DNA from: Escherichia coli
GTDB lineage: Bacteria; Pseudomonadota; Gammaproteobacteria; Enterobacterales; Enterobacteriaceae
NCBI RefSeq assembly: GCF_030013595.1
Contig: NZ_CP122768.1
Reading direction: 5' to 3' (one strand)
DNA length: 64,000 nucleotides
Shown: piece by piece, positions 4,055 through 58,788 of the stretch
How the letters are laid out: each line of letters opens with the position of its first letter
Numbering within the stretch: position 1 is the stretch's first letter
Notes under the pieces: model-generated
What the model was told of the DNA's origin: nothing
Database searches by the model: none
Seen by the model: only the letters and a program-made list of their open reading frames with translations
Translations under genes and position numbers: made by a program

Positions 4055-5419
4055 ATGATTAGTGCATTCGATATTTTCAAAATTGGGATTGGTCCCTCCA
4101 GTTCGCATACCGTGGGGCCAATGAATGCCGGAAAAAGTTTTATTGATCGGCTGGAAAGTAGCGGCTTATTAACCGCGACGAGCCATATTGTGGTCGATCT
4201 GTACGGGTCGTTGTCACTGACGGGCAAAGGCCATGCCACGGATGTCGCCATTATCATGGGACTGGCAGGAAACAGTCCGCAGGATGTTGTCATTGATGAG
4301 ATCCCTGCATTTATAGAGTTAGTAACGCGCAGCGGGCGGCTGCCAGTGGCATCTGGTGCGCATATTGTTGATTTTCCTGTAGCAAAGAACATTATCTTCC
4401 ATCCCGAAATGTTGCCTCGCCATGAGAACGGAATGCGGATCACTGCCTGGAAGGGACAGGAAGCGCTATTAAGTAAAACCTATTACTCTGTCGGCGGCGG
4501 GTTTATTGTCGAAGAAGAACACTTCGGCCTGTCGCACGATGTCGAAACGTCCGTACCTTACGATTTCCACTCAGCAGGTGAACTGCTGAAAATGTGTGAT
4601 TACAACGGCCTGTCTATATCTGGTCTGATGATGCACAACGAGCTGGCGCTGCGCAGCAAAGCGGAAATTGACGCCGGTTTTGCCCGTATCTGGCAAGTGA
4701 TGCATGACGGTATTGAACGCGGGATGAACACTGAAGGCGTGCTGCCTGGTCCGCTCAATGTGCCGCGTCGTGCCGTAGCGCTGCGTCGTCAGCTGGTTTC
4801 CAGCGATAACATCTCTAACGATCCGATGAATGTCATCGACTGGATCAATATGTACGCGCTGGCGGTTAGTGAAGAAAACGCAGCTGGCGGGCGCGTGGTG
4901 ACGGCACCGACTAACGGTGCGTGCGGCATTATTCCGGCAGTGCTGGCTTATTACGATAAGTTCCGTCGTCCGGTAAACGAGCGGTCAATTGCCCGCTATT
5001 TTCTGGCAGCGGGGGCTATTGGCGCGCTGTATAAAATGAACGCCTCCATCTCTGGCGCGGAAGTCGGCTGTCAGGGGGAGATTGGCGTGGCCTGTTCAAT
5101 GGCGGCGGCAGGGTTAACTGAACTCCTGGGCGGCAGTCCGGCGCAGGTGTGCAATGCGGCGGAAATCGCGATGGAGCATAACCTTGGGCTGACCTGCGAT
5201 CCGGTTGCCGGACAGGTACAAATCCCGTGCATTGAACGTAATGCCATTAATGCCGTGAAAGCAGTAAATGCCGCACGGATGGCGATGCGCCGCACCTCGG
5301 CACCGCGTGTTTCACTCGATAAAGTGATCGAGACGATGTATGAAACCGGCAAAGATATGAACGATAAATACCGCGAAACATCACGCGGAGGACTGGCCAT
5401 TAAAGTGGTCTGCGGCTGA
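4055..5419 (+). CDS. tdcG: L-serine dehydratase TdcG
   Basis: 454 aa from [23 protein letters not shown]. Single-chain alpha/beta serine dehydratase. Confidence 0.93.
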
Positions 5420-5443
5420 CATTACTGTCAGCTTTCATCCTTG

Positions 5444-5469
5444 GGTGCACAAATGTGCACCTTTTTTTT
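5444..5469 (+). terminator. intrinsic terminator after tdcG
   Basis: Stem GGTGCAC / GTGCACC with loop AAAT, followed by T8. Confidence 0.85.
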
Positions 5470-5693
5470 GTGATCTGCCGCAAATAGAGAATGAATATTC
5501 TCTTGCAGTTAATTTAGTAGAAAATTCTTATCCATCTCCGTTATTTCAAAGTCTTGATTGTGAAGATTTTCTCTGACCTCGCGCGTATCATTTCTTTATT
5601 CTAATAACTCGCCTGCAAAAACGTAGACTGCATATCGCCTTGATGCGGCTCGGAAAAAAATAATAAGCCCTACAAAATATTGAGCGAGAAATT

Positions 5694-7025
5694 ATGGAAA
5701 TTGCATCGAATAAAGGCGTCATTGCAGACGCTTCGACCCCGGCGGGTCGTGCTGGAATGAGTGAGAGCGAGTGGCGAGAAGCGATCAAATTCGACAGTAC
5801 TGACACCGGCTGGGTGATTATGAGTATCGGGATGGCGATTGGCGCGGGGATTGTTTTTCTCCCGGTGCAGGTCGGTTTGATGGGATTGTGGGTATTTTTG
5901 CTCTCATCGGTGATTGGTTACCCGGCAATGTATCTGTTTCAGCGGTTGTTTATTAATACGCTGGCAGAATCACCAGAATGTAAAGATTACCCGAGCGTCA
6001 TTAGCGGTTATTTAGGTAAAAACTGGGGCATCCTGTTAGGTGCGCTCTATTTCGTAATGCTGGTGATTTGGATGTTCGTCTATTCCACCGCCATCACCAA
6101 CGATAGTGCTTCCTATCTGCATACCTTCGGCGTGACGGAAGGGTTGCTGTCAGACAGTCCCTTTTATGGTCTGGTACTGATTTGCATTCTGGTGGCGATC
6201 TCTTCACGCGGCGAGAAATTGTTATTCAAAATTTCGACCGGCATGGTGCTGACCAAGCTGCTGGTGGTCGCTGCGCTGGGCGTGTCGATGGTGGGAATGT
6301 GGCATCTGTATAACGTCGGTTCGCTACCGCCGCTGGGGCTGCTGGTGAAAAACGCCATTATTACGCTGCCGTTTACCCTGACGTCGATTCTGTTTATCCA
6401 GACGTTAAGCCCGATGGTGATCTCTTATCGCTCGCGGGAAAAATCAATTGAAGTGGCGCGGCATAAAGCATTGCGGGCAATGAATATCGCGTTTGGCATT
6501 TTGTTTGTCACCGTCTTTTTCTACGCCGTGTCGTTCACGCTGGCGATGGGACATGACGAAGCGGTAAAAGCCTACGAGCAGAATATTTCCGCGTTGGCGA
6601 TTGCCGCACAGTTTATTAGCGGTGACGGCGCAGCGTGGGTGAAAGTGGTCAGCGTCATTCTCAATATCTTTGCTGTAATGACTGCATTCTTTGGCGTCTA
6701 TTTAGGCTTTCGCGAAGCAACGCAAGGGATCGTAATGAACATCCTGCGTCGCAAGATACCTGCCGAGAAGATTAACGAAAATCTCGTTCAGCGCGGCATC
6801 ATGATTTTCGCCATTTTGCTGGCCTGGAGCGCCATCGTACTGAACGCCCCGGTGTTGAGCTTCACCTCTATCTGTAGCCCGATTTTCGGCATGGTAGGGT
6901 GCCTGATCCCGGCGTGGCTGGTTTACAAAGTACCGGCATTGCACAAATACAAAGGGATGTCTCTGTACCTGATTATCGTCACTGGTTTGTTGCTTTGTGT
7001 TTCTCCGTTCCTGGCATTTTCTTGA
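5694..7025 (+). CDS. cyuP: SdaC/TdcC-like (HAAAP family) transporter YhaO/CyuP
   Basis: 443-aa multi-TM ORF recognised as YhaO. Synteny with cyuA. Confidence 0.9.
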   Translation: MEIASNKGVIADASTPAGRAGMSESEWREAIKFDSTDTGWVIMSIGMAIGAGIVFLPVQVGLMGLWVFLLSSVIGYPAMYLFQRLFINTLAESPECKDYPSVISGYLGKNWGILLGALYFVMLVIWMFVYSTAITNDSASYLHTFGVTEGLLSDSPFYGLVLICILVAISSRGEKLLFKISTGMVLTKLLVVAALGVSMVGMWHLYNVGSLPPLGLLVKNAIITLPFTLTSILFIQTLSPMVISYRSREKSIEVARHKALRAMNIAFGILFVTVFFYAVSFTLAMGHDEAVKAYEQNISALAIAAQFISGDGAAWVKVVSVILNIFAVMTAFFGVYLGFREATQGIVMNILRRKIPAEKINENLVQRGIMIFAILLAWSAIVLNAPVLSFTSICSPIFGMVGCLIPAWLVYKVPALHKYKGMSLYLIIVTGLLLCVSPFLAFS

Positions 7026-7052: not shown

Positions 7053-8363
7053 ATGTTTGATTCGACTTTAAATCCGTTATGGCAGCGTTACATCCTCGCC
7101 GTTCAGGAGGAGGTAAAACCGGCGCTGGGGTGTACTGAACCGATTTCACTGGCGCTGGCAGCGGCGGTTGCTGCGGCTGAACTGGAAGGTCCGGTTGAAC
7201 GTGTAGAAGCCTGGGTTTCGCCAAATCTGATGAAGAACGGTCTGGGCGTCACCGTTCCCGGCACGGGAATGGTGGGGCTGCCGATTGCGGCGGCGCTGGG
7301 AGCGTTAGGTGGAAATGCTAACGCCGGGCTGGAAGTGCTGAAAGATGCAACTGCGCAGGCAATTGCCGATGCCAAAGCACTGCTGGCGGCGGGGAAAGTC
7401 TCAGTTAAGATCCAGGAACCTTGCGATGAAATCCTCTTCTCACGCGCCAAAGTCTGGAACGGTGAGAAGTGGGCGTGTGTCACCATTGTCGGCGGGCATA
7501 CCAACATTGTGCATATTGAGACGCACAATGGTGTGGTGTTTACCCAGCAGGCGTGTGTGACAGAGGGCGAGCAAGAGTCGCCGCTGACGGTGCTTTCCAG
7601 GACGACGCTGGCTGAGATCCTGAAGTTCGTCAATGAAGTCCCGTTTGCGGCGATCCGCTTTATTCTCGATTCTGCGAAGTTAAATTGTGCGTTATCGCAG
7701 GAAGGTTTGAGCGGTAACTGGGGGCTGCATATTGGTGCGACGCTGGAAAAACAGTGCGCGCGCGGTTTGCTGGCGAAAGATCTCTCTTCATCCATTGTGA
7801 TTCGTACCAGCGCGGCATCCGATGCGCGTATGGGCGGCGCTACGCTTCCGGCAATGAGTAACTCCGGCTCGGGTAACCAGGGGATCACTGCAACAATGCC
7901 TGTGGTGGTGGTAGCAGAACACTTCGGGGCCGATGATGAACGGCTGGCGCGAGCGCTGATGCTTTCGCATTTGAGCGCGATTTACATCCATAACCAGTTA
8001 CCGCGTTTGTCTGCGCTTTGTGCCGCAACGACCGCAGCAATGGGGGCCGCCGCCGGGATGGCATGGCTGGTGGATGGGCGTTATGAAACCATCTCGATGG
8101 CGATCAGCAGTATGATCGGCGATGTCAGCGGCATGATTTGCGATGGTGCGTCGAACAGCTGCGCGATGAAGGTTTCGACCAGTGCTTCGGCTGCGTGGAA
8201 AGCGGTGTTAATGGCGCTGGATGATACCGCAGTGACCGGCAATGAAGGGATTGTGGCGCATGATGTTGAGCAGTCGATTGCCAACCTGTGTGCGTTAGCA
8301 AGCCATTCGATGCAGCAAACGGATCGGCAGATTATCGAGATTATGGCGAGCAAGGCCAGATAA
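7053..8363 (+). CDS. cyuA: cysteine desulfidase YhaM/CyuA
   Basis: 436-aa ORF recognised as YhaM (UPF0597). Confidence 0.9.
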
Positions 8364-8383
8364 ACGCCAGGTTTTGGGTAACG

Positions 8384-8402
8384 TGCCGGATGCGATGCTG
8401 GC
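8384..8402. repeat. left half of a REP palindromic unit split by the IS
   Basis: TGCCGGATGCGATGCTGGC. It continues as TGGCGCGTCTTATCTGGCCTAC at 9835. Confidence 0.8.
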
Positions 8403-8444
8403 TGAACTGCACCCCAAATGTTGGACATAATCTGACATCTGAAG

Positions 8445-8975
8445 GTGCAGTTTATGAAACATTCATTTGAAGTAAAACTTGCCGCTGTAAATCATTACCT
8501 GGCTGGTCATGCAGGCATCATTTCTACGGCAAAACTCTTTCAACTTTCTCACACCAGCCTCTCACACTGGATTAATCTTTTTCTTCTTCACGGTCCTCGT
8601 GCACTGGATTGCAGACACAAGCGTAGCTATTCTCCTGAAGATAAACTTTGCGTGGTTCTTTATGCTCTCGGGCATTCTGAGTCTCTACCCCGGGTAGCTG
8701 CCCGGTTTAACATTCCCAGCCACAACACGGTTAAAAACTGGATAAAAGGCTACCGCAAATCTGGTAATGAGGCCTTTATCAGGCGCAGGAAGGAGAAAAG
8801 CATGACCCGTTCTGATGATACCCATGAAAACGAGGCAAACATGACGCCGGAAGAGATGAAGAATGAGCTGCGTTATCTTCGCGCAGAAAATGCATATCTG
8901 AAAGCCATGCAGGAGCATCTCCTGGAAAAAAAGCGCCAGGAGCTGGAGAAAAAACGAAAGTCATCCGGAGCCTGA
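8445..8975 (+). CDS. IS3-family transposase OrfA (HTH, leucine-zipper-like C-terminus)
   Basis: 176-aa ORF. The coiled-coil-like C-terminus LRAENAYLKAMQEHLLEKKRQELEKK is typical of IS3 OrfA. Confidence 0.88.
   Translation: MQFMKHSFEVKLAAVNHYLAGHAGIISTAKLFQLSHTSLSHWINLFLLHGPRALDCRHKRSYSPEDKLCVVLYALGHSESLPRVAARFNIPSHNTVKNWIKGYRKSGNEAFIRRRKEKSMTRSDDTHENEANMTPEEMKNELRYLRAENAYLKAMQEHLLEKKRQELEKKRKSSGA
8927..8933 (+). other. programmed -1 ribosomal frameshift heptamer A AAA AAG
   Basis: The heptamer is in the orfA zero frame (codons AAA AAG). The -1 frame is open from here into orfB, reading KKAPGAGEKTKVIRSLRCGH...GLARSTLYYQL. Confidence 0.8.
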
Positions 8976-9079
8976 GGTGCGGACACTGCCAGTCTGACCT
9001 GTTAAAGGCTGCAGGGCTGGCCAGAAGCACGCTGTACTACCAGCTGTCACTGCAGAAGGCTAAGGACAAGTATGCTGAT

Positions 9080-13125: not shown

Positions 13126-14112
13126 TTAACCGAAGCGAACATCTCGTCCATGCGGTTCATCGAGATCCTGCCACGGACCAATTGAAATAATCCCCGTAGG
13201 GTTGATGGTCTTATGGCTGCGGAAGTAGTGATTACGGATGTGTTCGAAATTGACAGTTTCGGCAATCCCCGGCATCTGGTAGATATCGCGCAGGAAACCA
13301 TACAGGTTCAGGTAATCGCTGATGCGGTGCTTATCACACTTGAAGTGGGTGACATACACCGGATCAAAACGCACCAGCGTGGTCCACAGGCGAATATCGG
13401 CTTCGGTTAGCTGGTTGCCGGTCAGGTAACGATGCTGGCCTAAAATCTGCTCCAGTCGCGCCAGCGATTCAAACACTTTCACTACCGCCTCGTCGTAGGC
13501 TTGCTGGCTGGTGGCAAAACCGGCTTTATACACGCCATTGTTAACGGTGTCATAAATCCAGGCGTTAAGTTCGTCAATTTTCGGTTGCAGGGCTGGTGGG
13601 TAGTAATCACCAGCTTTCGCGCCCAGCGCATCAAACGCGGTATTGAACATGCGGATGATTTCTGCTGATTCGTTGCTGACGATGGTGTGGTTCTTTTTGT
13701 CCCACAGCACGGGAACAGTAACTCGTCCGCTGTAGTGTGGATCGGCGTGGAGATAAAGCTGATACAGAAATTCATGTTGATAGAGCGTATCTCCGGTTGC
13801 TCCCGGAAAACTGTCATCAAAGGTCCAGCCGTTTTCCAGCATCAGCGGGTTCACTACGGAAACGGAAATAAATGGTTCCAGTCCTTTGAGTTTACGCATG
13901 ATCAGCGTACGGTGCGCCCACGGGCAGGCGAGTGAAACATAGAGATGATAACGATCTTTCTCTGCGGTAAAACCGCCTATGCCAGTGGGGCCAGGAGTGC
14001 CATCGGCAGTGAGCCAGTTACGAAATGCGGAAGCTGAACGTTGAAATTTACCGCCGGTGGATTTGGTATCGTACCAGGTGTCATGCCAGACGCCGTCAAT
14101 CAGTTGACCCAT
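13126..14112 (-). CDS. yqjG: glutathionyl-hydroquinone reductase (Xi-class GST) YqjG
   Basis: 328 aa from MGQLIDGVWHDTWYD. The CPWAHR active-site motif is visible. Confidence 0.93.
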   Translation of the reverse strand: MGQLIDGVWHDTWYDTKSTGGKFQRSASAFRNWLTADGTPGPTGIGGFTAEKDRYHLYVSLACPWAHRTLIMRKLKGLEPFISVSVVNPLMLENGWTFDDSFPGATGDTLYQHEFLYQLYLHADPHYSGRVTVPVLWDKKNHTIVSNESAEIIRMFNTAFDALGAKAGDYYPPALQPKIDELNAWIYDTVNNGVYKAGFATSQQAYDEAVVKVFESLARLEQILGQHRYLTGNQLTEADIRLWTTLVRFDPVYVTHFKCDKHRISDYLNLYGFLRDIYQMPGIAETVNFEHIRNHYFRSHKTINPTGIISIGPWQDLDEPHGRDVRFG

Positions 14113-14131
14113 ATTTCTCTCCTCCAATAGC

Positions 14132-14160
14132 AAAAACGAGGAGTTTCCTCCTCGTTTTTT
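14132..14160 (-). terminator. intrinsic terminator after yqjF (hairpin flanked by A5 and T6, potentially bidirectional)
   Basis: CGAGGAG-TTTC-CTCCTCG, flanked by AAAAA and TTTTTT. Confidence 0.7.
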
Positions 14161-14181
14161 ATCGTTAAGTATAGCGCGTGC

Positions 14182-14574
14182 TTACCACTTTTTATTCAGC
14201 AGGCGGTCGATGCTATACGCGCCCGGACCGGTAATTGCCAGCAGCAGGAATCCGCCAGAAATTGTCAGGTTTTTCATGAACATCAGCGAGTTGACGCCTT
14301 CAGCAAAGTTGCTGTGAAATAAAAATGCCGTCAGCAGCGTAAAGCCCGCAGTAAACAGGGCTGTGGTGCGAGTCAGGAAACCAAACAGGATTGCCAGACC
14401 ACCACCAAACTCAAGCAGAATCACCAGCGGCAGCATAAAGCCTGGGACACCCATCGCTTCCATATATTGTTGGGTACCCGCGTAGCCAGTAATTTTTCCC
14501 CAGCCTGCGGTAATAAACAGAATCGGCATTAAAATGCGCGCTACCAGTACACCAACATCTTCTAATTTTTTCAT
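14182..14574 (-). CDS. yqjF: DoxX-family inner-membrane protein YqjF
   Basis: 130 aa from MKKLEDVGVLVARILMPILF, within ORF 14182..14664. Confidence 0.88.
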   Translation of the reverse strand: MKKLEDVGVLVARILMPILFITAGWGKITGYAGTQQYMEAMGVPGFMLPLVILLEFGGGLAILFGFLTRTTALFTAGFTLLTAFLFHSNFAEGVNSLMFMKNLTISGGFLLLAITGPGAYSIDRLLNKKW

Positions 14575-14760
14575 CATACTCTCCACTGCGCCACTCAGGC
14601 TGCTGATTGTTTTTTTGTGCAAGGGCGCGGTATTAGCGTCGTTGCTGTCGATGGAGAGAATCATAAACGTGGTGAATGATGATTGTTAGCAAGGAAAACT
14701 GTCAAAAATCTTCAAAAAATTTGAGGGATAAGGCCGGAATGGCTCCGGCCAGAGAGGTTA

Positions 14761-15060
14761 TTAACCGCGAAGCTGTTGCTGCTTGAGGGTCGTTTTAACC
14801 AGACGCCAGGCGCTCCATAAGCCAAAACCGCGTCTGGCCCAGCGGACCAGCATATTAGGATGGCGAATCGTCCAGATCGCCATCACGCTACTGCCAACCA
14901 GCGCCCAGGAGCGCAGACTTAGCAGCATATTCCAGCGACGATCGTAAGCGCCTGTTGCCTCCAGCCATTCACGACGACTGGCAGAAAGATCCAGCCGTTG
15001 TTGCTGGATCTGGCTAAGCAGTTGCGCCTTACGTCGTTCACGTTCGACTTTACTGCTCAC
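14761..15060 (-). CDS. yqjK: small membrane protein YqjK
   Basis: 99 aa from the GTG at 15060 (SSKVERERRKAQLL...). It overlaps the yqjE stop. Confidence 0.8.
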   Translation of the reverse strand: MSSKVERERRKAQLLSQIQQQRLDLSASRREWLEATGAYDRRWNMLLSLRSWALVGSSVMAIWTIRHPNMLVRWARRGFGLWSAWRLVKTTLKQQQLRG

Positions 15061-50467: not shown

Positions 50468-50489
50468 GATATGCCTTTTTGTATGCCTA
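50468..50489. repeat. 22-nt repeat GATATGCCTTTTTGTATGCCTA (distal island end)
   Basis: 20/22 identical, in direct orientation, to 58569-58590 next to int. Candidate integrase arm-type sites. Confidence 0.6.
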
Positions 50490-50916: not shown

Positions 50917-51207
50917 TTATCTGGTGTGGTCGTAGTTCTGCCGTAGTCGTTCACCCTCAGCGCAATGACGCGGTTTTTTAACGCCGCTGGTAACGCAACG
51001 CGGGCAGGTCATGACGTGGCTGATATACGCATCACGGGCAGCCAGCCACGTCGCTGACGGGGCGCACATATCCGCCAGCGCCTGGCCGTTGCTGGTGGTG
51101 TTGTCTTCCGGCCATGTTTCGGGCTGGTGCGCTTCCGGTAAATCCGGTGCAGGTAATGCCCGGATAAACTCACACAATGCATCCGGCAGGCTGAATAACT
51201 TATGCAT
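50917..51207 (-). CDS. hypothetical 96-aa ORF (doubtful)
   Basis: ATG start but no obvious SD. Shares a ~29-nt patch with the helicase gene. Contains CPRC...HC. Confidence 0.3.
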   Translation of the reverse strand: MHKLFSLPDALCEFIRALPAPDLPEAHQPETWPEDNTTSNGQALADMCAPSATWLAARDAYISHVMTCPRCVTSGVKKPRHCAEGERLRQNYDHTR

Positions 51208-51630
51208 AAATCTGATGTTCTGAATCGCTGAAAACGTGCGTTTTATGGCGTTTTTTCGTGATTTCTGCGTGTTCTGATGTGCTCATTTCGCTGTATCCCT
51301 TGTGTGGCGCGGGCTGCGCGTGTGTTTCGGTGTTCTTTTTTACCGCCAGAAAACGGTAATCAGGCATATAAACACGGCTGTAAGCCGCGCCGCGTCTGGC
51401 TTCGCGTGATTTTGTGCGTCAAAAAGTGCATTTTTGCCCTTAAAAAGCGTTATTCGTAATTCACTGGTAAATGCTCCGCAGGCCGCGCCATTGCTGGCCT
51501 TTTCGCTATTCTGTGTGGTTTTGCTGTTTAACCCGTTTTGCACACTAAAATTGCCTTGCATCCCGCGCCACGTAAGGGATTGCCGGGTTTTTATGTTGCG
51601 TTTTTTGCCGTGCGTAATATTGTGCAAGTT

Positions 51631-51871
51631 GGTGGGACTGGTGGGAACTGTGGGAACCGCCTAGAACCACGCGGCTTTCAGTGGTTCCCACCAGTTCCCA
51701 CGTTGGCTTTTTGTGGGAACCGTGGCGGTTATTTTTTGTTCTTTGCGGTTCCCACCAGTTCCCGCAGAGTTCCCACTCAAAAACGAACAATAATCATACT
51801 GATGGTTTTATTATTTACTGATTTATATATGTTTTATTTTTACGGTTCCCACAGTTCCCACCAGTCCCACC
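51631..51871. repeat. iteron cluster, the putative island replication origin
   Basis: 12 copies of GTGGGAAC/GTTCCCAC (three degenerate) at 9-11-bp spacing. Perfect 28-bp inverted repeat 51631-51658 / 51844-51871. An AT-rich stretch at 51777-51843. Lies directly 3' of the helicase gene. Confidence 0.7.
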
Positions 51872-51906
51872 ACTTTTTCAGTTTTTAAAAACGCAATTTT
51901 TGTGAA

Positions 51907-53745
51907 TTATTCATCAATTGCGAATAACAATGCATTCTGGCCGATGGCGTAAACGCGGTGTTTCTCCCCGTTAACGGAAACGCGTTTTGTGTATCGGCGT
52001 TTCCCGTCCGTGTCGCGGTCAACAATCGCGCCAGCATCGTCAAGACTGGCCGCTATGCGTTTCAGGTCGTAGCCGCTGGCCGCCTCACATAGTGCTTCCG
52101 GTAAAAACCAGTAAACCCGCTCGCCGTTGCTCCCCGGTCGCCACCATCCGGCGCGGGTGCTTACTGGTTCGCTGTATGTGCTGCCCCCTTCAAAGCGTGA
52201 AGCATGGCGGGCGATAAACCCCGCGACGGCCCGGAGTATTTTCACGTCCTCCGATTGCCCCCGCCCACGATAGTCCGCCCACGCATCAAACATCGCTTTC
52301 ACTGCCTCCAGTGCTTCGCCCTGTTTCCACGGCAGAATCCCGGCAGTTATCGCCATTTCCCCGGCCAGTGCGCACAGTGTGAAACGCGCGGCGGCGCGTG
52401 CCTCCTGTCCGGTGCTTACGGGGAATTGTTCGCGCAGTATGGCGTACATATCCGCCAGCGTCTGGCCGTTGCTGTCGGTGCTGGTGGTGTCACTTTCATT
52501 GCGGGAAATCAGCCAGCGCACAAACTCCGGCCCGGCGTGGCCGTAATGGGTAGCCGCATTACCGCGCAGTGTTTCGGCAAATTTCCGGCCTGCTCCCCGG
52601 CGTTCTGTGTCGTTGTCGGGGTTGTGGGGTAGTGCCATTCCGTGAAGACAGTCAAATGCCCCGTAAAGCCGCTGTGCCGGAATATCCAGTAACCGCATTT
52701 CCTGCCCGGCCTTGATGCGCTGGCCGCCGCTTTCCATGTGTTTACCCACGGTCATTTCCCCGGTGGAAATAATCATGGTGCGCCATGTGTTGACCGGGCG
52801 GGCCATGCCGGACACCTTGCCACGCTGACGGCCTGTTCCGTTGCCAAGCTGATAAATCAGCCCGCCAATATCTCTGGCCGGGGCTTCGCCAATTTCATCC
52901 AGTATCAGCGCGGTATCGTTCCGCATGGTTGCCAGCCCTTCAAGCCCGGTGCTGGTGGCGTTCCAGTTGCGTTTAAAGTTGCGGGGTTCTCCCCATACGC
53001 TACAGGCCACCAGCGCCCCCACGCTTTTCCCGCTGGAACTGTCGCCCATGAAATGAAATCCGCCGCTGTCCACATCAAGCAACCACAGCAACGGCCCGGC
53101 GAGCGATGCACACACGGCCAGCATGGTTACCGGGTTTCCCCGGCATAATGCGGCCACGTTGTCGCGCCAGCCCTCCGGCGTTCCTGCGGTGGCGTACTCC
53201 TGTGAGCCTGCTTCTGTTGACTGAAACACCACATCACCATCACCGATAACCCCGCCCGGCATGACAAACAGGGCCGGGGAGTGCCACCCGGTGGCCGTGG
53301 CCGCGAGCGCCCGGCGTTTTGGTGCTGACTCCATGATGTATTCAGTCAGTGCCTGCCGTTGTTTGTAGGGAATGGTAACGCCCATGCGTAGCAGTTCCTG
53401 CCGGAGTTCTCCGCCGTCTCCGGCGAGCATTTCCATCGGTGCGGCCCATTCCCGCCACTGGCCTGACGGCGTGAGAAAACGGAGTAATCGCCCGTAGTTT
53501 TCGTCTTTGCTGTCGCTGGTCATGGCGATGACCTCCAGCGGGGAACATATAAACGTGTCTGTGTTGGTTGAGTCGCGCACGCCGTGCCAGTAAAGGCCGG
53601 GTTTCAGTATCTGGCCGCCGTCCACCTGTACATGCTGCGAATAAGTGGCGTAGCCCGGACGCGCCGGGCTGACTTTGGGGTGTTTCTTGCGTGGTGGTTT
53701 TCTCTTCCCGGATGTGACCGGGGTTTTAGTGGTTGTCCGGGTCAT
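51907..53745 (-). CDS. DUF927-type / SF3-like replicative helicase
   Basis: 612 aa. Walker A GDSSSGKS and Walker B ALILDEIGE are visible. Its start overlaps the primase stop by 20 nt. Confidence 0.8.
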   Translation of the reverse strand: MTRTTTKTPVTSGKRKPPRKKHPKVSPARPGYATYSQHVQVDGGQILKPGLYWHGVRDSTNTDTFICSPLEVIAMTSDSKDENYGRLLRFLTPSGQWREWAAPMEMLAGDGGELRQELLRMGVTIPYKQRQALTEYIMESAPKRRALAATATGWHSPALFVMPGGVIGDGDVVFQSTEAGSQEYATAGTPEGWRDNVAALCRGNPVTMLAVCASLAGPLLWLLDVDSGGFHFMGDSSSGKSVGALVACSVWGEPRNFKRNWNATSTGLEGLATMRNDTALILDEIGEAPARDIGGLIYQLGNGTGRQRGKVSGMARPVNTWRTMIISTGEMTVGKHMESGGQRIKAGQEMRLLDIPAQRLYGAFDCLHGMALPHNPDNDTERRGAGRKFAETLRGNAATHYGHAGPEFVRWLISRNESDTTSTDSNGQTLADMYAILREQFPVSTGQEARAAARFTLCALAGEMAITAGILPWKQGEALEAVKAMFDAWADYRGRGQSEDVKILRAVAGFIARHASRFEGGSTYSEPVSTRAGWWRPGSNGERVYWFLPEALCEAASGYDLKRIAASLDDAGAIVDRDTDGKRRYTKRVSVNGEKHRVYAIGQNALLFAIDE

Positions 53746-54769
53746 GCTCCATTTCCCATAGCATCAAATCGTTAAAGTCGGAAAGGTCTGGTGATGCACC
53801 GGGCGGCCATTCCGGGAATGTGACGTAACACCCGGCCAGCAATGCGGCTTCGTTGGCTGCTCTGGAACCGGGGTTATCTTTTGATGCCCGGTCATCATCC
53901 CCGGCGATAACGAGAGATATGCGCGAGCCGTATCGCTCACGCAGCGCCATAGCCACATGTTTAAGGTTTCCCGCATTCATGGCACACACCACGGCCATGA
54001 CGTTCCAGTACTGGAGAAGGGCGGCCCCGGTGGCCCACCCCTCACACACGTAAACGTCATGTTCCGGCGCTTCCGGGGCCATCAGGTCAAAGCTCCCCAT
54101 AACATGGAAAGCCCCCTGCACCTGACCATCACGGAGAAACATTTTTCGACCGTCCGGGCTGATAATCTGCACGTTCACCACTTCGCCGCATACGTTGTAC
54201 AGCGGGACAAGCAAATCATTACCTGACTGATACAGATTGCCGGGCTGTAGCCGTTTTTTCATGAGATAGGGATGAGAAGGGTTTGCCACCTCCGCCCGGC
54301 CAAGCAACTCAAAGGCCCGGCAGGCGGTCAGTTTCTGGCGCTGGTGGCGCTGTTGCTGTTCCCGCTGGCGGAGTCTGGCCGCCTCCTGTTCTGCGGCCTG
54401 TACCCGCACCCGTTGCGCCTCCCGTTGTTCGCGGGTCATTACATCAGGTTTGCCCAGCGCGGGCAGGCACAGCCCCAGCCTGTCCGCCACAATACGGGCG
54501 GCATCAGTCTGCCGCACATTCCATAAATAAGCCCCCAGCGCCACAAGGTCGCCGCCGCTGTCCCCGGTGGCGAAGTCGTGCCAGCATCCGTCCACCAGCG
54601 AGACGGAAAAACTGCCCGCGTGACGGTCTGCACGCGTGGGGTTACGACACACCCATTCAGTGGCCTGCCGTTTACCTTCGGGCAGCCATTCGGGAACAAG
54701 GATTTCTGCATGTTGTGCCGCCACTGCGGCAACGCTACGGATTGCGTTAATCGTGGCTATGTCACGCAT
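53726..54769 (-). CDS. Toprim-domain DNA primase (P4 alpha / bacteriophage-type)
   Basis: 347 aa from the ATG at 54769 (MRDIATINAIRS...). Toprim-like VYVCEGWATGAAL and LVIAGDDD acidic motifs. The 397-aa ORF is an upstream extension. Confidence 0.75.
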   Translation of the reverse strand: MRDIATINAIRSVAAVAAQHAEILVPEWLPEGKRQATEWVCRNPTRADRHAGSFSVSLVDGCWHDFATGDSGGDLVALGAYLWNVRQTDAARIVADRLGLCLPALGKPDVMTREQREAQRVRVQAAEQEAARLRQREQQQRHQRQKLTACRAFELLGRAEVANPSHPYLMKKRLQPGNLYQSGNDLLVPLYNVCGEVVNVQIISPDGRKMFLRDGQVQGAFHVMGSFDLMAPEAPEHDVYVCEGWATGAALLQYWNVMAVVCAMNAGNLKHVAMALRERYGSRISLVIAGDDDRASKDNPGSRAANEAALLAGCYVTFPEWPPGASPDLSDFNDLMLWEMEHDPDNH

Positions 54770-55555: not shown

Positions 55556-55746
55556 TCTGGCAGCCTCCTTTTGCAAATTTAAGGAGTCACCGCCTGAGTT
55601 CCTACACTCATAAGGGGCGGTGACGCTGGCAGGGGTAGGAATACCGGCGCAAAAGGAAACCGGCCAGCCTTTCGGCTGCCCCACCAGCGCCACCATAGAT
55701 ACAGTGCGGGTCTTGCCGCTGTGCATGGGTGCGCGATGGCACGACA

Positions 55747-55981: not shown

Positions 55982-56236
55982 TTAGTGGCTGGTGGGTTCT
56001 TTGTTTTTTTGCGCTCTGGCGATAATTTCTGCCATTACGTTATTGCGTTCCTCCACGCGGGCCGCAAGCCATGCATTAACTTCGGATTCAAACCATCCAA
56101 CGCGGCGCAGCCCGCGACGAAAGCCGGGGATAAATTCGCCAGCCCGAATCATGTCGTCAATGCTGGTAGTGGAACGAAGGCGCAGACGCGCAGCAACCTC
56201 GCGTTTGGTGAGGATTTTATCTTGTGTGGTGTCCAT
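55982..56236 (-). CDS. alpA: AlpA/MerR-type (HTH_17) phage regulatory protein
   Basis: 84 aa from the ATG at 56236 with an AAGAGG RBS. ILTKREVAARLRLRSTTSIDDMIRAGEFIPG...WFESEVNAWL is the typical AlpA pattern. Confidence 0.8.
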   Translation of the reverse strand: MDTTQDKILTKREVAARLRLRSTTSIDDMIRAGEFIPGFRRGLRRVGWFESEVNAWLAARVEERNNVMAEIIARAQKNKEPTSH

Positions 56237-56312
56237 GATATTTCGCCTCTTAATTGTATTAATTGGCCCTAACTGGCCATAACAATATGGAAGCACAAGA
56301 AGGCGTGAAATT

Positions 56313-56348
56313 GCCGGACATGTCCATCAGATGGCTGACATGTCCGGC
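56313..56348. promoter_or_regulatory. perfect 12-bp inverted repeat GCCGGACATGTC-N12-GACATGTCCGGC, an operator or a terminator
   Basis: Lies between the stop of the 292-aa gene and the alpA promoter region. Confidence 0.5.
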
Positions 56349-56369: not shown

Positions 56370-57248
56370 CTAATCAACCTTAAACCAGCGTCGCATGGTT
56401 TTTTGTGAGGGCAGAGATAAACCAGCTTTGCAAAAATCGTTTTCTAATTCTGTTGGCTGGCCCTTGGTTTTGTCTTCTCTTACATGAAGCCATGGTTTGC
56501 CTCGCTTCGTTTCATCCTTGTAATACAGATAAAGCAAATCATCCACAAAAGCAGGCAGTGCGCTTCTTGGGTCTGGTTGTGTCGTCGGTGATGGTAGTTT
56601 TTTGGTTATGCACCCCATTAACATCCCGTTAGCGCAATCTCTCCCGCCATCCTTAAGGATTTCGATTTCTTCGGCGGTAATAAACAGGTCATCAATGCTT
56701 ACATCGAGTGGACTGGAATCAAAAGTAATCATCGGGCTGAGGGAATAATCGTCACCGTCAGTGTTCATTGTCCTTGGCTTTCCAAGAGAAAAACGAGCCG
56801 ATGACTTTCCATATTTTACAAAATCATAAAAAGGCATGGATTTGGTCAGGTTGCATATGGACATTAACCCTTCTATGGTCAAGTACCTGTATCCCATTAA
56901 AGGTATTTGGTTTTTCGGAATACCTCTGGGACGTTCTTCACTGATAAACAGAATTGCTGTTGTGACTTCAAAATCTCCCGCGCTATATGGTGTATAGACG
57001 GTAAATGGTAGCTGACACAGTGAATCGCCAAGCGGTTTAAATAAAACATACTTATCAGTTGATTTAGTTTCATAATGGTTAAACAGGTCAATTTCAGCCC
57101 GCCACCTTCCTGATATATGTGTACAAATCTCCAGCATTCCTATGTCAGCAAAATGAAGCAAATCATCAACACTGCACTTATTGGAGTTTGCAGTCAGATA
57201 ACTGGCCGCATCGCGTAGTGAGTAAAACAATCTTTTAGGTAATGCCAT
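56370..57248 (-). CDS. orphan 292-aa protein in the int-alpA cargo slot, function unknown
   Basis: The ATG at 57248 lies 1 nt after the int TAA (TAATATG). AT-rich compared with the rest of the island. Only HTH-like patterns at the two termini are recognisable by eye. Confidence 0.75.
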   Translation of the reverse strand: MALPKRLFYSLRDAASYLTANSNKCSVDDLLHFADIGMLEICTHISGRWRAEIDLFNHYETKSTDKYVLFKPLGDSLCQLPFTVYTPYSAGDFEVTTAILFISEERPRGIPKNQIPLMGYRYLTIEGLMSICNLTKSMPFYDFVKYGKSSARFSLGKPRTMNTDGDDYSLSPMITFDSSPLDVSIDDLFITAEEIEILKDGGRDCANGMLMGCITKKLPSPTTQPDPRSALPAFVDDLLYLYYKDETKRGKPWLHVREDKTKGQPTELENDFCKAGLSLPSQKTMRRWFKVD

Positions 57249-57249
57249 A

Positions 57250-58524
57250 TTATTCACCAACCACTTTTAAGCCACGAAAACCGCCAGTTGCACTAAGGCT
57301 TCCGGTTGCTGCCTGTTCGATAAAATCACCCCACCACGCCATCAGTGGGCGGCGTTGCTCCAGATATGTGGAGCGATTGTAAGCCCGTCTCACCGTGTCC
57401 TTATCCAGATGGGAAAGCGCAGCCTCTATTACATCTGGCGGGAACCCCTGTTCATTAAGCGCCGTACTTGCTACAGAGCGTAAACCATGCGCCACCAGCT
57501 TTCCGGTATACCCCATGCGCCTGATAGCGGCGTTTGCGGTCTGTTGATGCATCCCACGCATGGGGTCGCTGTTATGTGGAAAAACAAACTTTCGATGCCC
57601 GCTGATTGGGCGCATGGCTTCAAGAATGGCCATTGCCTGATTATTCAGGGGGACAATGTGCTCCCTTCGTTGTTTTAGTCGCCCGGCTGATATACGCCAC
57701 ACTCTGGCATCTGCATCTATCTCGCTCCACTGTGCCCCGGCTGCCTCGCATGGGCGGCAAATAGTTAATAATTGCCATTCAATAACAAGACGCGTTTGAA
57801 GTTCTGCGCGAGCCGTTGCCAGTTTTTGCATAAATTCCGGCAACTCATCAGGCCTGATTGTTGGCATGTGTTTAACTACAGGTGGGTTGAATGCCTTGCT
57901 GATTTGAGCGGCGGGATTAGCTGGAATTAATCCAATATTCACTGCGTAATACATAACCTCATTGATTCTTTGTGCCAGCCGTCGCACCGTATCCGCTTTG
58001 CCCTGTGCTGATACAGGTTTCAGGGCTTCGATAAAATCCCGTGCAACCAGTTCTGTGATTGGGCGATGGCCTATGGGTGGCAGCACATGACGCTCAAGAG
58101 AACGCCATATATCACGGAGTGTATTTGCCGCCAGATTCTGGCCGCGCTTTACTTCAAACCATTCTTCGGCCACGCGCTGAAATGTGTTTAATCGCCGTAT
58201 TTCATCATCCCGGCGTTGTTTTTCCCTGTGTTCTTTGGGGTCAGTTCCATTTGCGACCAGTGAGCGATACTCGTCTTTAATCCTGCGAGCATCGGCAATG
58301 CTGATTTCGGGATATGCACCAAGGCTTAACATTGCCCGTTTTTTGGTGTGTGGCTTGTAGTACCGGAACCGCCATAAGGCTGATGCGCTACCCGCTTTCA
58401 CAACTAACTCCAGCCCATCGCCATCCGTGATAAATAAATCCTTCTCGGCGGTGAGCGATTTCTTCTGCAAACTTTTAATCGTCGCTGGTGTAAGTAATTT
58501 TGTGTTTTTGGCCACTGGTTGCAT
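57250..58524 (-). CDS. int: P4-type tyrosine integrase
   Basis: 424 aa. N-terminal arm-binding-like region (LTPATIKSL...GLELVVKAGSASALWRFRY). C-terminal AHGLRS...HLDKDTVRRAYNRSTY catalytic region. Adjacent to a tRNA. Confidence 0.92.
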   Translation of the reverse strand: MQPVAKNTKLLTPATIKSLQKKSLTAEKDLFITDGDGLELVVKAGSASALWRFRYYKPHTKKRAMLSLGAYPEISIADARRIKDEYRSLVANGTDPKEHREKQRRDDEIRRLNTFQRVAEEWFEVKRGQNLAANTLRDIWRSLERHVLPPIGHRPITELVARDFIEALKPVSAQGKADTVRRLAQRINEVMYYAVNIGLIPANPAAQISKAFNPPVVKHMPTIRPDELPEFMQKLATARAELQTRLVIEWQLLTICRPCEAAGAQWSEIDADARVWRISAGRLKQRREHIVPLNNQAMAILEAMRPISGHRKFVFPHNSDPMRGMHQQTANAAIRRMGYTGKLVAHGLRSVASTALNEQGFPPDVIEAALSHLDKDTVRRAYNRSTYLEQRRPLMAWWGDFIEQAATGSLSATGGFRGLKVVGE

Positions 58525-58568: not shown

Positions 58569-58590
58569 GATATGCCTTGATGTATGCCTA
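58569..58590. repeat. 22-nt repeat GATATGCCTTGATGTATGCCTA (int-proximal end)
   Basis: Partner of 50468-50489. An inverted AGGCATA copy lies at ~58547. Confidence 0.6.
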
Positions 58591-58712
58591 AAGAATCTGG
58601 CTTATACCTTAGCAAACTGGCCAAAACTGGACAATAAAAAACCCGCAAGCCTTGTGTGGCGCGGGTTTCGTCTGATTAACTGGCCGTATCTGATACTAAC
58701 CGAATGTCAATT

Positions 58713-58788
58713 TGGTGGCCCCTGCTGGACTTGAACCAGCGACCAAGCGATTATGAGTCGCCTGCTCTAACCACTGAGCTAAGGGGCC
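58713..58788 (-). tRNA. ileX: tRNA-Ile2 (anticodon CAU, lysidine-modified), ileX
   Basis: 76 nt: GGCCCCTTAGCTCAGTGGTTAGAGCAGGCGACTCATAATCGCTTGGTCGCTGGTTCAAGTCCAGCAGGGGCCACCA. Cloverleaf arms and encoded CCA are present. Confidence 0.93.

Follow-up and report, generated by a model that had tools for sequence, protein, structure and literature searches.

We report here on gene X, a 292-amino acid (aa) open reading frame (ORF) that lies between the integrase gene (int) and the alpA-like gene of a satellite integrated at the tRNA gene ileX, within a 64,000-nucleotide (nt) stretch of Escherichia coli DNA from contig NZ_CP122768.1 (hereafter the window). X is a real coding gene of a rare, new and unannotated protein family, and we think it best explained as a portable cassette of regulator plus operators that sits at the island's alpA switch. 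The reading that we favour, with a probability that we put at about even, is that X and its own binding sites form an accessory cassette gating alpA, in which X would act as a Stl-like, sequence-specific DNA-binding regulator with a variable sensor. A first-pass annotation, made from the letters alone, had singled out this gene as either a defence factor or a Stl-like regulator; its observation is confirmed and its interpretation is partly supported, with the Stl-like option fitting much better.

The evidence for this reading centres on a pair of palindromes located 21 nt past the X stop and 76 nt ahead of the alpA ATG. The first-pass annotation had described this feature as a 12-bp inverted repeat; its coordinates and perfection hold (GCCGGACATGTC and GACATGTCCGGC, at 56313-56324 and 56337-56348), but it consists of the self-complementary GGACATGTCC in two copies. 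Such a pair, two copies about two helical turns apart just after the X stop, is the typical arrangement, and across loci (designated here by L numbers) the copies of GGACATGTCC are 20-21 bp apart and begin 3-23 nt past the X stop. Paired palindromes under a strict definition were found in seven lineages, where at most 1 of 2000 shuffles did as well (0 of 2000 for the window pair), and 3' of 17 of the 1008 control ORFs.

Among about 20 lineages compared by sequence, the class of palindrome follows the predicted C-terminal domain of X and not AlpA, Int or the N-terminus of X. The window, L002, L003, L007, L009, L010 and L102, whose C-terminal helix reads [ST][QRA]K[TS]xxRW, all carry two copies of GGACATGTCC, which are kept amid drift of the flanks and of the intervening spacer. 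The helix xGKT[IV]xxW accompanies two copies of GGAATATTCC in L012, L098/99 and L114/116, and GGAACTTTCC in L100/101; SPSNLRNWL goes with AAACTTTCAAAGTTT and a half-site in L115, DDKTLIDWL with CGGAATT-N5-AATTCCG and a half-site in L117-121, and the second C-terminal type common to L013 and L004/L006 with the half-site GACTAAA. L019 and L058, whose C-terminal helices are not classified, have TTCCATTAAG-A-CTTAATGGAA with a partial copy and two copies of CCCTTAATAAGGG, respectively.

Several comparisons separate the C-terminal domain from its neighbours in this respect. For instance, L012 and L099, in which int is 28%, AlpA about 26% and X 37% identical (with the N- and C-terminal ends of X conserved), have identical palindromes and diverged spacers. 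In L115 and L117 the AlpA proteins are 77% identical while the X C-termini and the palindromes both differ, and L019 has an AlpA 61-63% identical to the window type, yet other palindromes. Neither a slot gene nor paired palindromes occur in L022 and L024, despite AlpA proteins 97-99% identical to that of L021. Finally, L013 joins an X-type N-terminus, 58-60% identical to those of the window and L012, to the palindrome of its own different C-terminal type. On the cases in which AlpA and palindrome are decoupled we rejected AlpA as the palindrome binder, and on L013 the N-terminal domain as the determinant of specificity.

The anatomy of X is compatible with a role as a DNA-binding protein. AlphaFold2 (AF2) gave a model with a predicted local distance difference test score (pLDDT) of 79 and a predicted template modelling score of 0.64 when supplied with a 35-sequence alignment, and a pLDDT of only 30 with three sequences. 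The N-terminal 45 residues are predicted to form an AlpA/Xis-type MerR-like winged helix, likened to the Xis, RdfS and AlpA excisionases, with a strand and two helices over residues 8-35 and then a beta hairpin (pLDDT 91-97); the family motif here is MxLPxRxYYxLxxAA...DLLHFAxxGxLE. A beta-rich domain runs to about residue 160 and precedes a strand-helix motif (strand 188-191, helix 192-199, pLDDT about 92-94) in which E194 is invariant, and G201 and G202 nearly so, in the family alignment; the linker that follows, residues 207-223, is disordered in the model. At the C-terminus the model places helices at 227-243, 252-255, 267-274 and 282-289, the last two forming a helix-turn-helix (HTH). An HTH at this end had been proposed from the sequence, and both the model and the co-variation with the palindromes support it. 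The C-terminal domain had no sequence match to known HTH families in a PDB profile search or a Pfam scan of individual sequences, and Foldseek returned no matches to the X model in PDB or BFVD.

Sequence searches agree with the earlier statement that X belongs to no known family. No Pfam family was assigned to X at E up to 0.1, or to any of the 35 family members when the limit was 0.05; neither X nor its neighbours in the island had a PADLOC-DB v2 match with E up to 0.1; nothing significant came from NCBIfam, from PHROGs or from PDB sequences, the last also when searched with full-length and C-terminal profiles of the family. By tblastn, nothing matching X turned up in either the phage or the plasmid collections. 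The 35 family members come from a full HMMER scan of 1.84 billion representative proteins and are 250-340 aa long, except for two shorter fragments; a word-indexed protein search recovered 3 clusters with X, and 3-6 proteins even with a profile. Within E. coli, X is present in 17 of 5426 complete genomes, mostly enterotoxigenic strains from pigs, and always with the same integrase. In one of the family's loci, E. coli cq9 (L001), the island int is annotated as frameshifted (7735-8999) and an IS4 element sits between rpoD and mug (5398-6744); X is intact there.

Recomputation from the sequence reproduces the ORF as first described, with its ATG one base past the int stop (TAAtATG). The int stop occupies 57252-57250 and the X ATG 57248-57246, so that 1 nt separates them; the junction reads ...GGTGAATAAtATGGCA (stop and start letters, GGTGAATAAtATG), and a Shine-Dalgarno-like GGTGA lies within the final int codons, ahead of X. 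That X is a real coding gene follows from its pairwise ratios of nonsynonymous to synonymous substitution rates (dN/dS), 0.05-0.49 among five alleles, and from the MxLP start common to its homologues. A decaying or spurious ORF without function might have been suspected from its orphan status in the word-based search (3 clusters) and its low G+C. This view is excluded by the selection and conservation data, and we give it practically no probability: both ends have a dN/dS far below 1, the frame is unbroken in 17 of 17 E. coli genomes and even in relatives of 25-35% identity, and the 35-sequence alignment yields a confident fold.

Selection is uneven along the protein. Pairwise dN/dS is 0-0.15 for residues 1-47, 0.26-1.24 for residues 48-170 and 0.07-0.17 for residues 171-292, compared with 0.02-0.10 for int. 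X also has a history distinct from that of its flanks. Relative to the window copy, L010 has int at 82%, X at 32%, alpA at 71% and Toprim at 81% identity; for L007 the figures are 81%, 47%, 72% and 81%, and for L003 they are 100%, 86% and 99% for int, X and alpA. Synonymous divergence is decoupled as well (int 0.06 and X 0.24 against L003; int saturated and X 0.38 against L002), which indicates allele exchange.

The first-pass annotation regarded the place of X as a cargo slot into which an AT-rich cassette had been dropped, and the slot is indeed variable. Alignment of related islands, which it had recommended, revealed presence and absence of X, which is therefore not core. In a Pectobacterium clade with int 88-96% identical throughout, the slot contains an X-like 294-aa protein in L019 (AlpA 82%), another 294-aa protein with N- and C-termini of a similar kind in L021, and nothing in L022 and L024, with AlpA at 97-99% in the last three. 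A slot filled or empty amid near-identical int and AlpA marks X as accessory. A scan of GTDB representatives with the integrase found 80 loci at 50-59% identity, among which only L019 matched the X profile.

Two parts of the cargo proposal did not hold. The counts on which the AT-richness was based (24 and 37 G+C in two 60-nt lines) are exact, and X is AT-richer than its neighbours, with a G+C of 0.42 versus 0.51 for int and 0.57 for the remainder of the island. The same is true in every island, however (0.31-0.43 versus 0.43-0.64), so that low G+C is a trait of the family and not a sign of recent arrival. Nor is the cargo random: the occupants of alpA-linked slots have one common architecture and their own palindromes. 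The replication core of the island is found in 31 E. coli genomes, 14 of them with the island at yicC-dinD, where there is another int (30% identity), another alpA and a hypothetical protein of 306-317 aa in the slot. Over its C-terminal half this protein matches family member P0022 (31% over 140 aa, E 9e-14); its comparison with X was not significant by BLASTP or hhalign and its N-terminus is not detectably related, so that it is linked to X only via P0022. The slot proteins appear, from such alignments, to be a mosaic superfamily in which X-type N-termini are joined to at least two unrelated C-terminal types. In the yicC-dinD variant of E. coli JNEC-KY203 (L006; 14109-14304), the far end holds both a tRNA-Tyr and a 'tRNA-OTHER', plus PerC and Mor family regulators.

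Alternatively, X might, as a single gene carried as cargo next to int, provide anti-phage defence or interference, the palindromes being merely a hairpin at the transcript end. The accessory, presence/absence-polymorphic slot would suit such a factor, as would the AT-richness, fast evolution and rarity of the gene (17 of 5426 E. coli genomes), and the RNA hairpin is stable. Some other integrases of the wider clade precede defence-like genes, such as the UvrD-like helicase of L087 that matches PADLOC PDLC03002 (E 2.7e-126), and a PICI (phage-inducible chromosomal island) without a known defence gene confers superinfection immunity (PMC11773190). We nevertheless consider this role unlikely. No evidence was found for the defence half of the original suggestion: neither X, nor its neighbours, nor the nine other slot proteins of related alpA-linked islands had a PADLOC match, and X and those nine had no Pfam match either. 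Neither an enzymatic nor an effector fold is seen in the X model, but only end domains of a DNA-binding-like kind. Each arm of the hairpin is itself palindromic and keeps its sequence while spacers drift, neither of which a hairpin needs, and the strict adjacency to alpA would be left unexplained; no alpA was detected in loci with a defence-like gene after int, such as L087. In that locus, from Pectobacterium sp. B1J-3 (L087:7182-9263), the wider-clade int is followed, with overlapping stop and start, by the 693-aa helicase and a 223-aa ORF.

The neighbourhood of X likewise bears on its function. The slot had been tied to the integrase, but the invariant neighbour of X is alpA. All family loci with enough contig have an int-size ORF, X and then alpA, with the exception of L100/L101, in which X stands after a ParE toxin gene with no integrase adjoining and is followed directly 3' by an HTH_17 gene, an Ogr_Delta gene being present too. 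Because X keeps the HTH_17 gene there without an adjacent integrase, alpA is its constant neighbour. L002, L003, L007/8, L009 and L010/11 have int, X, an alpA-like gene for 81-84 aa, Bro/Ash, Toprim_3 and DUF927; L012 begins in the same way (int, X, alpA) but has a P4-alpha-like primase, and the order int, X, alpA is seen again in L099, L102 and L114-L121. The metagenomic L007 satellite adjoins the P2-like genes Ogr_Delta, gpD and gpU (13330-15027), which hints that P2-like phages are its neighbours or helpers. Likely accessory conflict genes, placed within the relatives or at their far end, include a reverse transcriptase (RVT_1, L099:7048-8299), a NACHT NTPase (L098:10560-12431) and a ParE-type toxin (L100:5571-5861).

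An integrase partner, that is a directionality or architectural factor made in fixed ratio with Int and bridging DNA sites through two DNA-binding domains, is a further candidate, to which we assign a low probability. Its appeal lies in the junction of 1 or -1 nt between the int stop and the X start that is kept in five lineages, in an N-terminal domain resembling the Xis, RdfS and AlpA excisionases, and in the co-occurrence of X and int in the same 17 E. coli genomes. However, X is missing from islands whose Int is 90-96% identical to that of occupied ones, and integrases as distant as 28% identity occur with one and the same X class and palindromes. The junction, 1 or -1 nt in the ileX clade, widens to 155 nt in L012 and to 95 nt with a terminator-like hairpin in L004; X is uncoupled from int in L099 as well, and L100/L101 have no adjoining int. 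The palindromes sit at alpA and not at the arms of the attachment (att) sites, where the repeats are of different motifs, and 292 aa is far above the size of known directionality factors.

We propose the following scheme for the favoured regulator-plus-operator cassette. The cassette would be inserted between int and alpA of a P4/PICI-like satellite at ileX, and X, downstream of int and probably co-transcribed with it, would be made together with Int off the int transcript in the resting state. Co-transcription and translational coupling had been put forward before; they are plausible only, the 1 or -1 nt junction being kept in five diverged islands. The C-terminal HTH of X would bind the two palindromes as a dimer or dimer of dimers and so control either read-through into alpA or initiation at alpA, the trigger gene for excision and replication in such satellites. 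The fast-evolving centre would receive an inducing signal, most plausibly a helper-phage protein. X may then be an optional plug-in beside C4 RNA immunity, which would act downstream of alpA. A sigma-70 consensus promoter could not confidently be assigned to alpA, so that X may be either a repressor or an activator. If a conserved CATAT(T/C) block is taken as the -10 element, the palindromes, read by eye, centre near -43 and -63, positions that could fit occlusion or roadblock repression and class II activation alike.

A variant of this regulator scheme with another purpose is immunity or exclusion among satellites, in which a resident repressor would bind the alpA operators of incoming related islands, as phage immunity regions do. 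There are several specificity classes of operator and C-terminus, X alleles shuffle apart from their flanks, the same cassette occurs in islands with unrelated int and alpA, and X could plausibly be expressed with int while the island is at rest. The ileX clade keeps the DNA-binding end and the operator constant while the centre diversifies, which is the opposite of what an immunity-specificity locus predicts, and we regard this purpose as improbable.

Several points weigh against a switch formed by X and its palindromes. The functional role of X is one that we infer. The island already has C4 RNA immunity and close relatives function without X, so that such a regulator is not required for the basic cycle; by the same token X would not be the only brake, and the 'master' label of the first-pass annotation overstates its place. 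The high central dN/dS may reflect relaxed constraint rather than an arms race. As RNA, the palindrome pairs fold into a hairpin of 12-14 bp and -17 to -24 kcal/mol (12 bp and -24 in the window), and possibly this hairpin insulates the transcript end, alone or in addition to being an operator; a U-run follows it only in L102, and a hairpin alone needs no self-complementary arms. The sites abut the coding region for the C-terminus, and linkage could partly contribute to the tracking of classes, although it does not explain why both copies are perfectly kept amid diverged spacers. The distant lineages L013, L004, L019, L021 and L100 have imperfect pairing or a single site. Finally, viral contigs scanned for paired GGACATGTCC gave 11 matches, all of them unrelated iteron-like repeats without X or alpA; the scan therefore implicates no helper phage and gives no sign that a helper carries the operator.

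The island itself has the features of a P4-like or Gram-negative PICI satellite (Table 1). The tRNA gene had been called ileX, and its anticodon CAT and RefSeq annotation as tRNA-Ile are in accordance with this. In E. coli K-12 the empty site joins ileX directly to nfeF (here, the tRNA to about 50391), from which the island measures about 8.3 kb, roughly 50.39-58.71 kb. Its minus strand runs int, X, alpA, an Ash/Icd-like ORF, two small ORFs, Toprim_3, DUF927, the iterons and a 96-aa ORF; int, alpA and the primase are co-oriented, integration, Bro/Ash and replication zones follow one another, and there are no virion or lysis genes. This layout fits the integration, Bro, replication and late zones of Gram-negative PICIs, and the iteron cluster, which includes a 30-nt perfect inverted repeat (51630-51659 and 51843-51872), agrees with their placement of the replication origin (ori) (PMC10111431). 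Pfam-A gave no Psu, Sid or Ogr_Delta match among the nine ORFs named above, from int to the 96-aa ORF, and RefSeq annotates only those genes over the 8.3 kb. Pfam HTH_17 and Phage_AlpA matches to the 84-aa AlpA-like protein were sub-threshold. The C4 RNA and its isrK/a1b1 target within the Ash ORF, both above their Rfam thresholds, constitute a P4-type RNA immunity.

Table 1. Features of the ileX island and of gene X in the window
Feature	Position	Strand	Basis or remarks
tRNA-Ile2 (ileX, anticodon CAT)	58713-58788	(-)	RefSeq annotation; integration site, left end of the island
int, P4-type tyrosine integrase	57250..58524	(-)	Pfam Arm-DNA-bind_3, Phage_int_M, Phage_integrase
Gene X (292 aa)	56370..57248	(-)	ORF and start; purifying selection; family membership; conserved synteny
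X residues 1-47, N-terminal MerR/Xis-like winged helix	57108..57248	(-)	Predicted; best conserved part of the family
X residues 48-170, beta-rich hypervariable centre	56739..57107	(-)	Candidate sensor or protein-interaction domain
X residues 184-203, strand-helix motif DLxITxxE(I/L)ExLKxGG	56640..56699	(-)	Family alignment; AF2
X residues 207-223, P/T/Q-rich linker, low confidence	56580..56630	(-)	pLDDT below 50
X residues 227-292, predicted C-terminal four-helix domain ending in HTH (ELENDFCKAGLSLPSQKTMRRWFK)	56373..56570	(-)	AF2; dN/dS; class tracks palindromes
Two copies of palindrome GGACATGTCC	56313..56348	.	20 bp start to start; proposed operators
alpA-like excisionase/activator gene (84 aa)	55982..56236	(-)	PHROG 66 excisionase/regulator, E 3.9e-12; RefSeq annotation
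isrK / c4-a1b1 target of C4	55749-55841	(-)	Rfam isrK, 60.7 bits (threshold 50); within Ash/Icd ORF
C4 antisense RNA	55613-55700	(-)	Rfam RF01695, 79.6 bits (gathering threshold 45); within Ash/Icd ORF
Replication module	51907..54769	(-)	Toprim_3 53726-54769, DUF927 primase-helicase 51907-53745; Pfam and PHROGs
Iteron cluster, likely ori	51630..51872	.	GGTTCCCACCAGTTCCC in three direct copies, downstream of the DUF927 primase gene

Other repeats were noted in the island. A 22-nt direct repeat, GATATGCCTT..TGTATGCCTA, lies near both ends (50468-50489 and 58569-58590, 91% identical), each copy holding two ATGCCT units, and the copies are candidate arm-type sites of the integrase. The sequence GGCCAGTT occurs on the minus strand at 58678-58685 and 58615-58622, between ileX and int, and at 56271-56278, just before the alpA start, where it makes a tandem GGCCAGTTAGGGCCAA that is kept in relatives; these repeats may be boxes for AlpA or a directionality factor, separate from the palindromes. 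A terminator-like sequence by ileX (58650-58670) is duplicated at 90% in the right-hand non-coding region (51298-51318), and a 43-nt segment of the DUF927 gene (52441-52483) is repeated at 88% within the 96-aa ORF (51061-51103). Past rearrangement or tandem integration may have left these duplications behind.

What keeps Gram-negative PICI-type satellites silent, and in what way alpA is turned on by a helper phage, has been an open question since 2018. X represents a concrete candidate switch for at least one clade of satellites, with defined domains and a proposed 36-bp target by alpA, and both natural specificity classes and natural cassette-free islands exist for comparison. A mobile cassette of regulator and operators would here recombine among satellites with unrelated integrases and AlpA proteins. 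Our analysis also cautions that low G+C beside an integrase should not be read as defence cargo.

Among known systems, the Bro-N network and CapR-type proteins of satellites (PMC10111431) resemble X in their mosaic domain swapping and in the DNA-binding regulatory roles of satellite-encoded proteins. X differs in having no Bro-N, KilA-N, ANT or ORF6N domain and in lying upstream of alpA, in the integration zone, instead of in the Bro zone. The PICI EcCIMP1 has a gene, EcCIMP1_002, in the same slot as X, between its int and alpA, and the authors treat this gene as a possible accessory one (PMC11773190). We rejected it as a family member: the int-alpA gap is only 427 bp, its product is too small and the X profile gave no match.

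The N-terminal 45 residues of X are predicted to take on the fold of AlpA, P4 Vis and the Xis-type proteins (HTH_17), which, like X, belong to the integration zone of satellites. AlpA-type excisionases are small, single-domain proteins (about 50-100 aa), whereas X has 292 aa, three further regions and a separate 84-aa alpA after it; X is not matched by Pfam HTH_17 (PF12728) or Phage_AlpA (PF05930), and the palindromes do not track AlpA. P2 Ogr and P4 delta, zinc-finger proteins of ~70 aa that recognise TGT-N12-ACA, activate PLL, the late promoter of P4 that precedes vis. As in our proposal for X, a factor acts there on a dyad-symmetric site just before the alpA/vis promoter, and the layout of alpA followed by an Ash/eta ORF with C4 RNA is shared. 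Unlike these proteins, X has no Ogr_Delta domain, and its sites are two 10-bp palindromes; the P2 Ogr-type box was considered for them and does not fit, the TGT...ACA spacing being 14-15. In L100/L101 an Ogr_Delta gene occurs alongside X.

A further parallel is with Stl/Rpr of the Gram-positive PICIs (the Staphylococcus aureus pathogenicity islands, SaPIs). No sequence or fold match of X to Stl/Rpr or to CI-like HTH_3 repressors was found, and the gene layouts differ, since Stl is transcribed divergently from str/xis while X, int and alpA share the minus strand, with the sites 3' of X and 5' of alpA. Unlike Stl, X is dispensable in close relatives, and its island also uses C4 RNA immunity. Like X, Stl/Rpr is encoded beside int in a phage satellite, and SaPIs too have accessory genes between int and stl (PMC6092414). 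Both have DNA-binding end domains, predicted ones in X, and a highly divergent region, and both are proposed to couple island induction to a helper phage. With regard to a Stl-type control region, the palindromes at alpA co-vary, by comparison across loci, with the C-terminal domain of X; with regard to release by a helper, a dN/dS of up to 1.24 in the hypervariable centre may point to a partner that changes. We speculate, tentatively and as a broader idea that we hold to be somewhat improbable, that X and its relatives supply the helper-sensing switch so far missing for a Gram-negative clade of P4/PICI-like satellites. A portable module of sensor, DNA-binding domain and operator upstream of alpA would set which helper induces the island, its centre co-evolving with a helper protein and its operator specificity being swapped by domain exchange, as an analogue of Stl with an unrelated fold and another gene layout.

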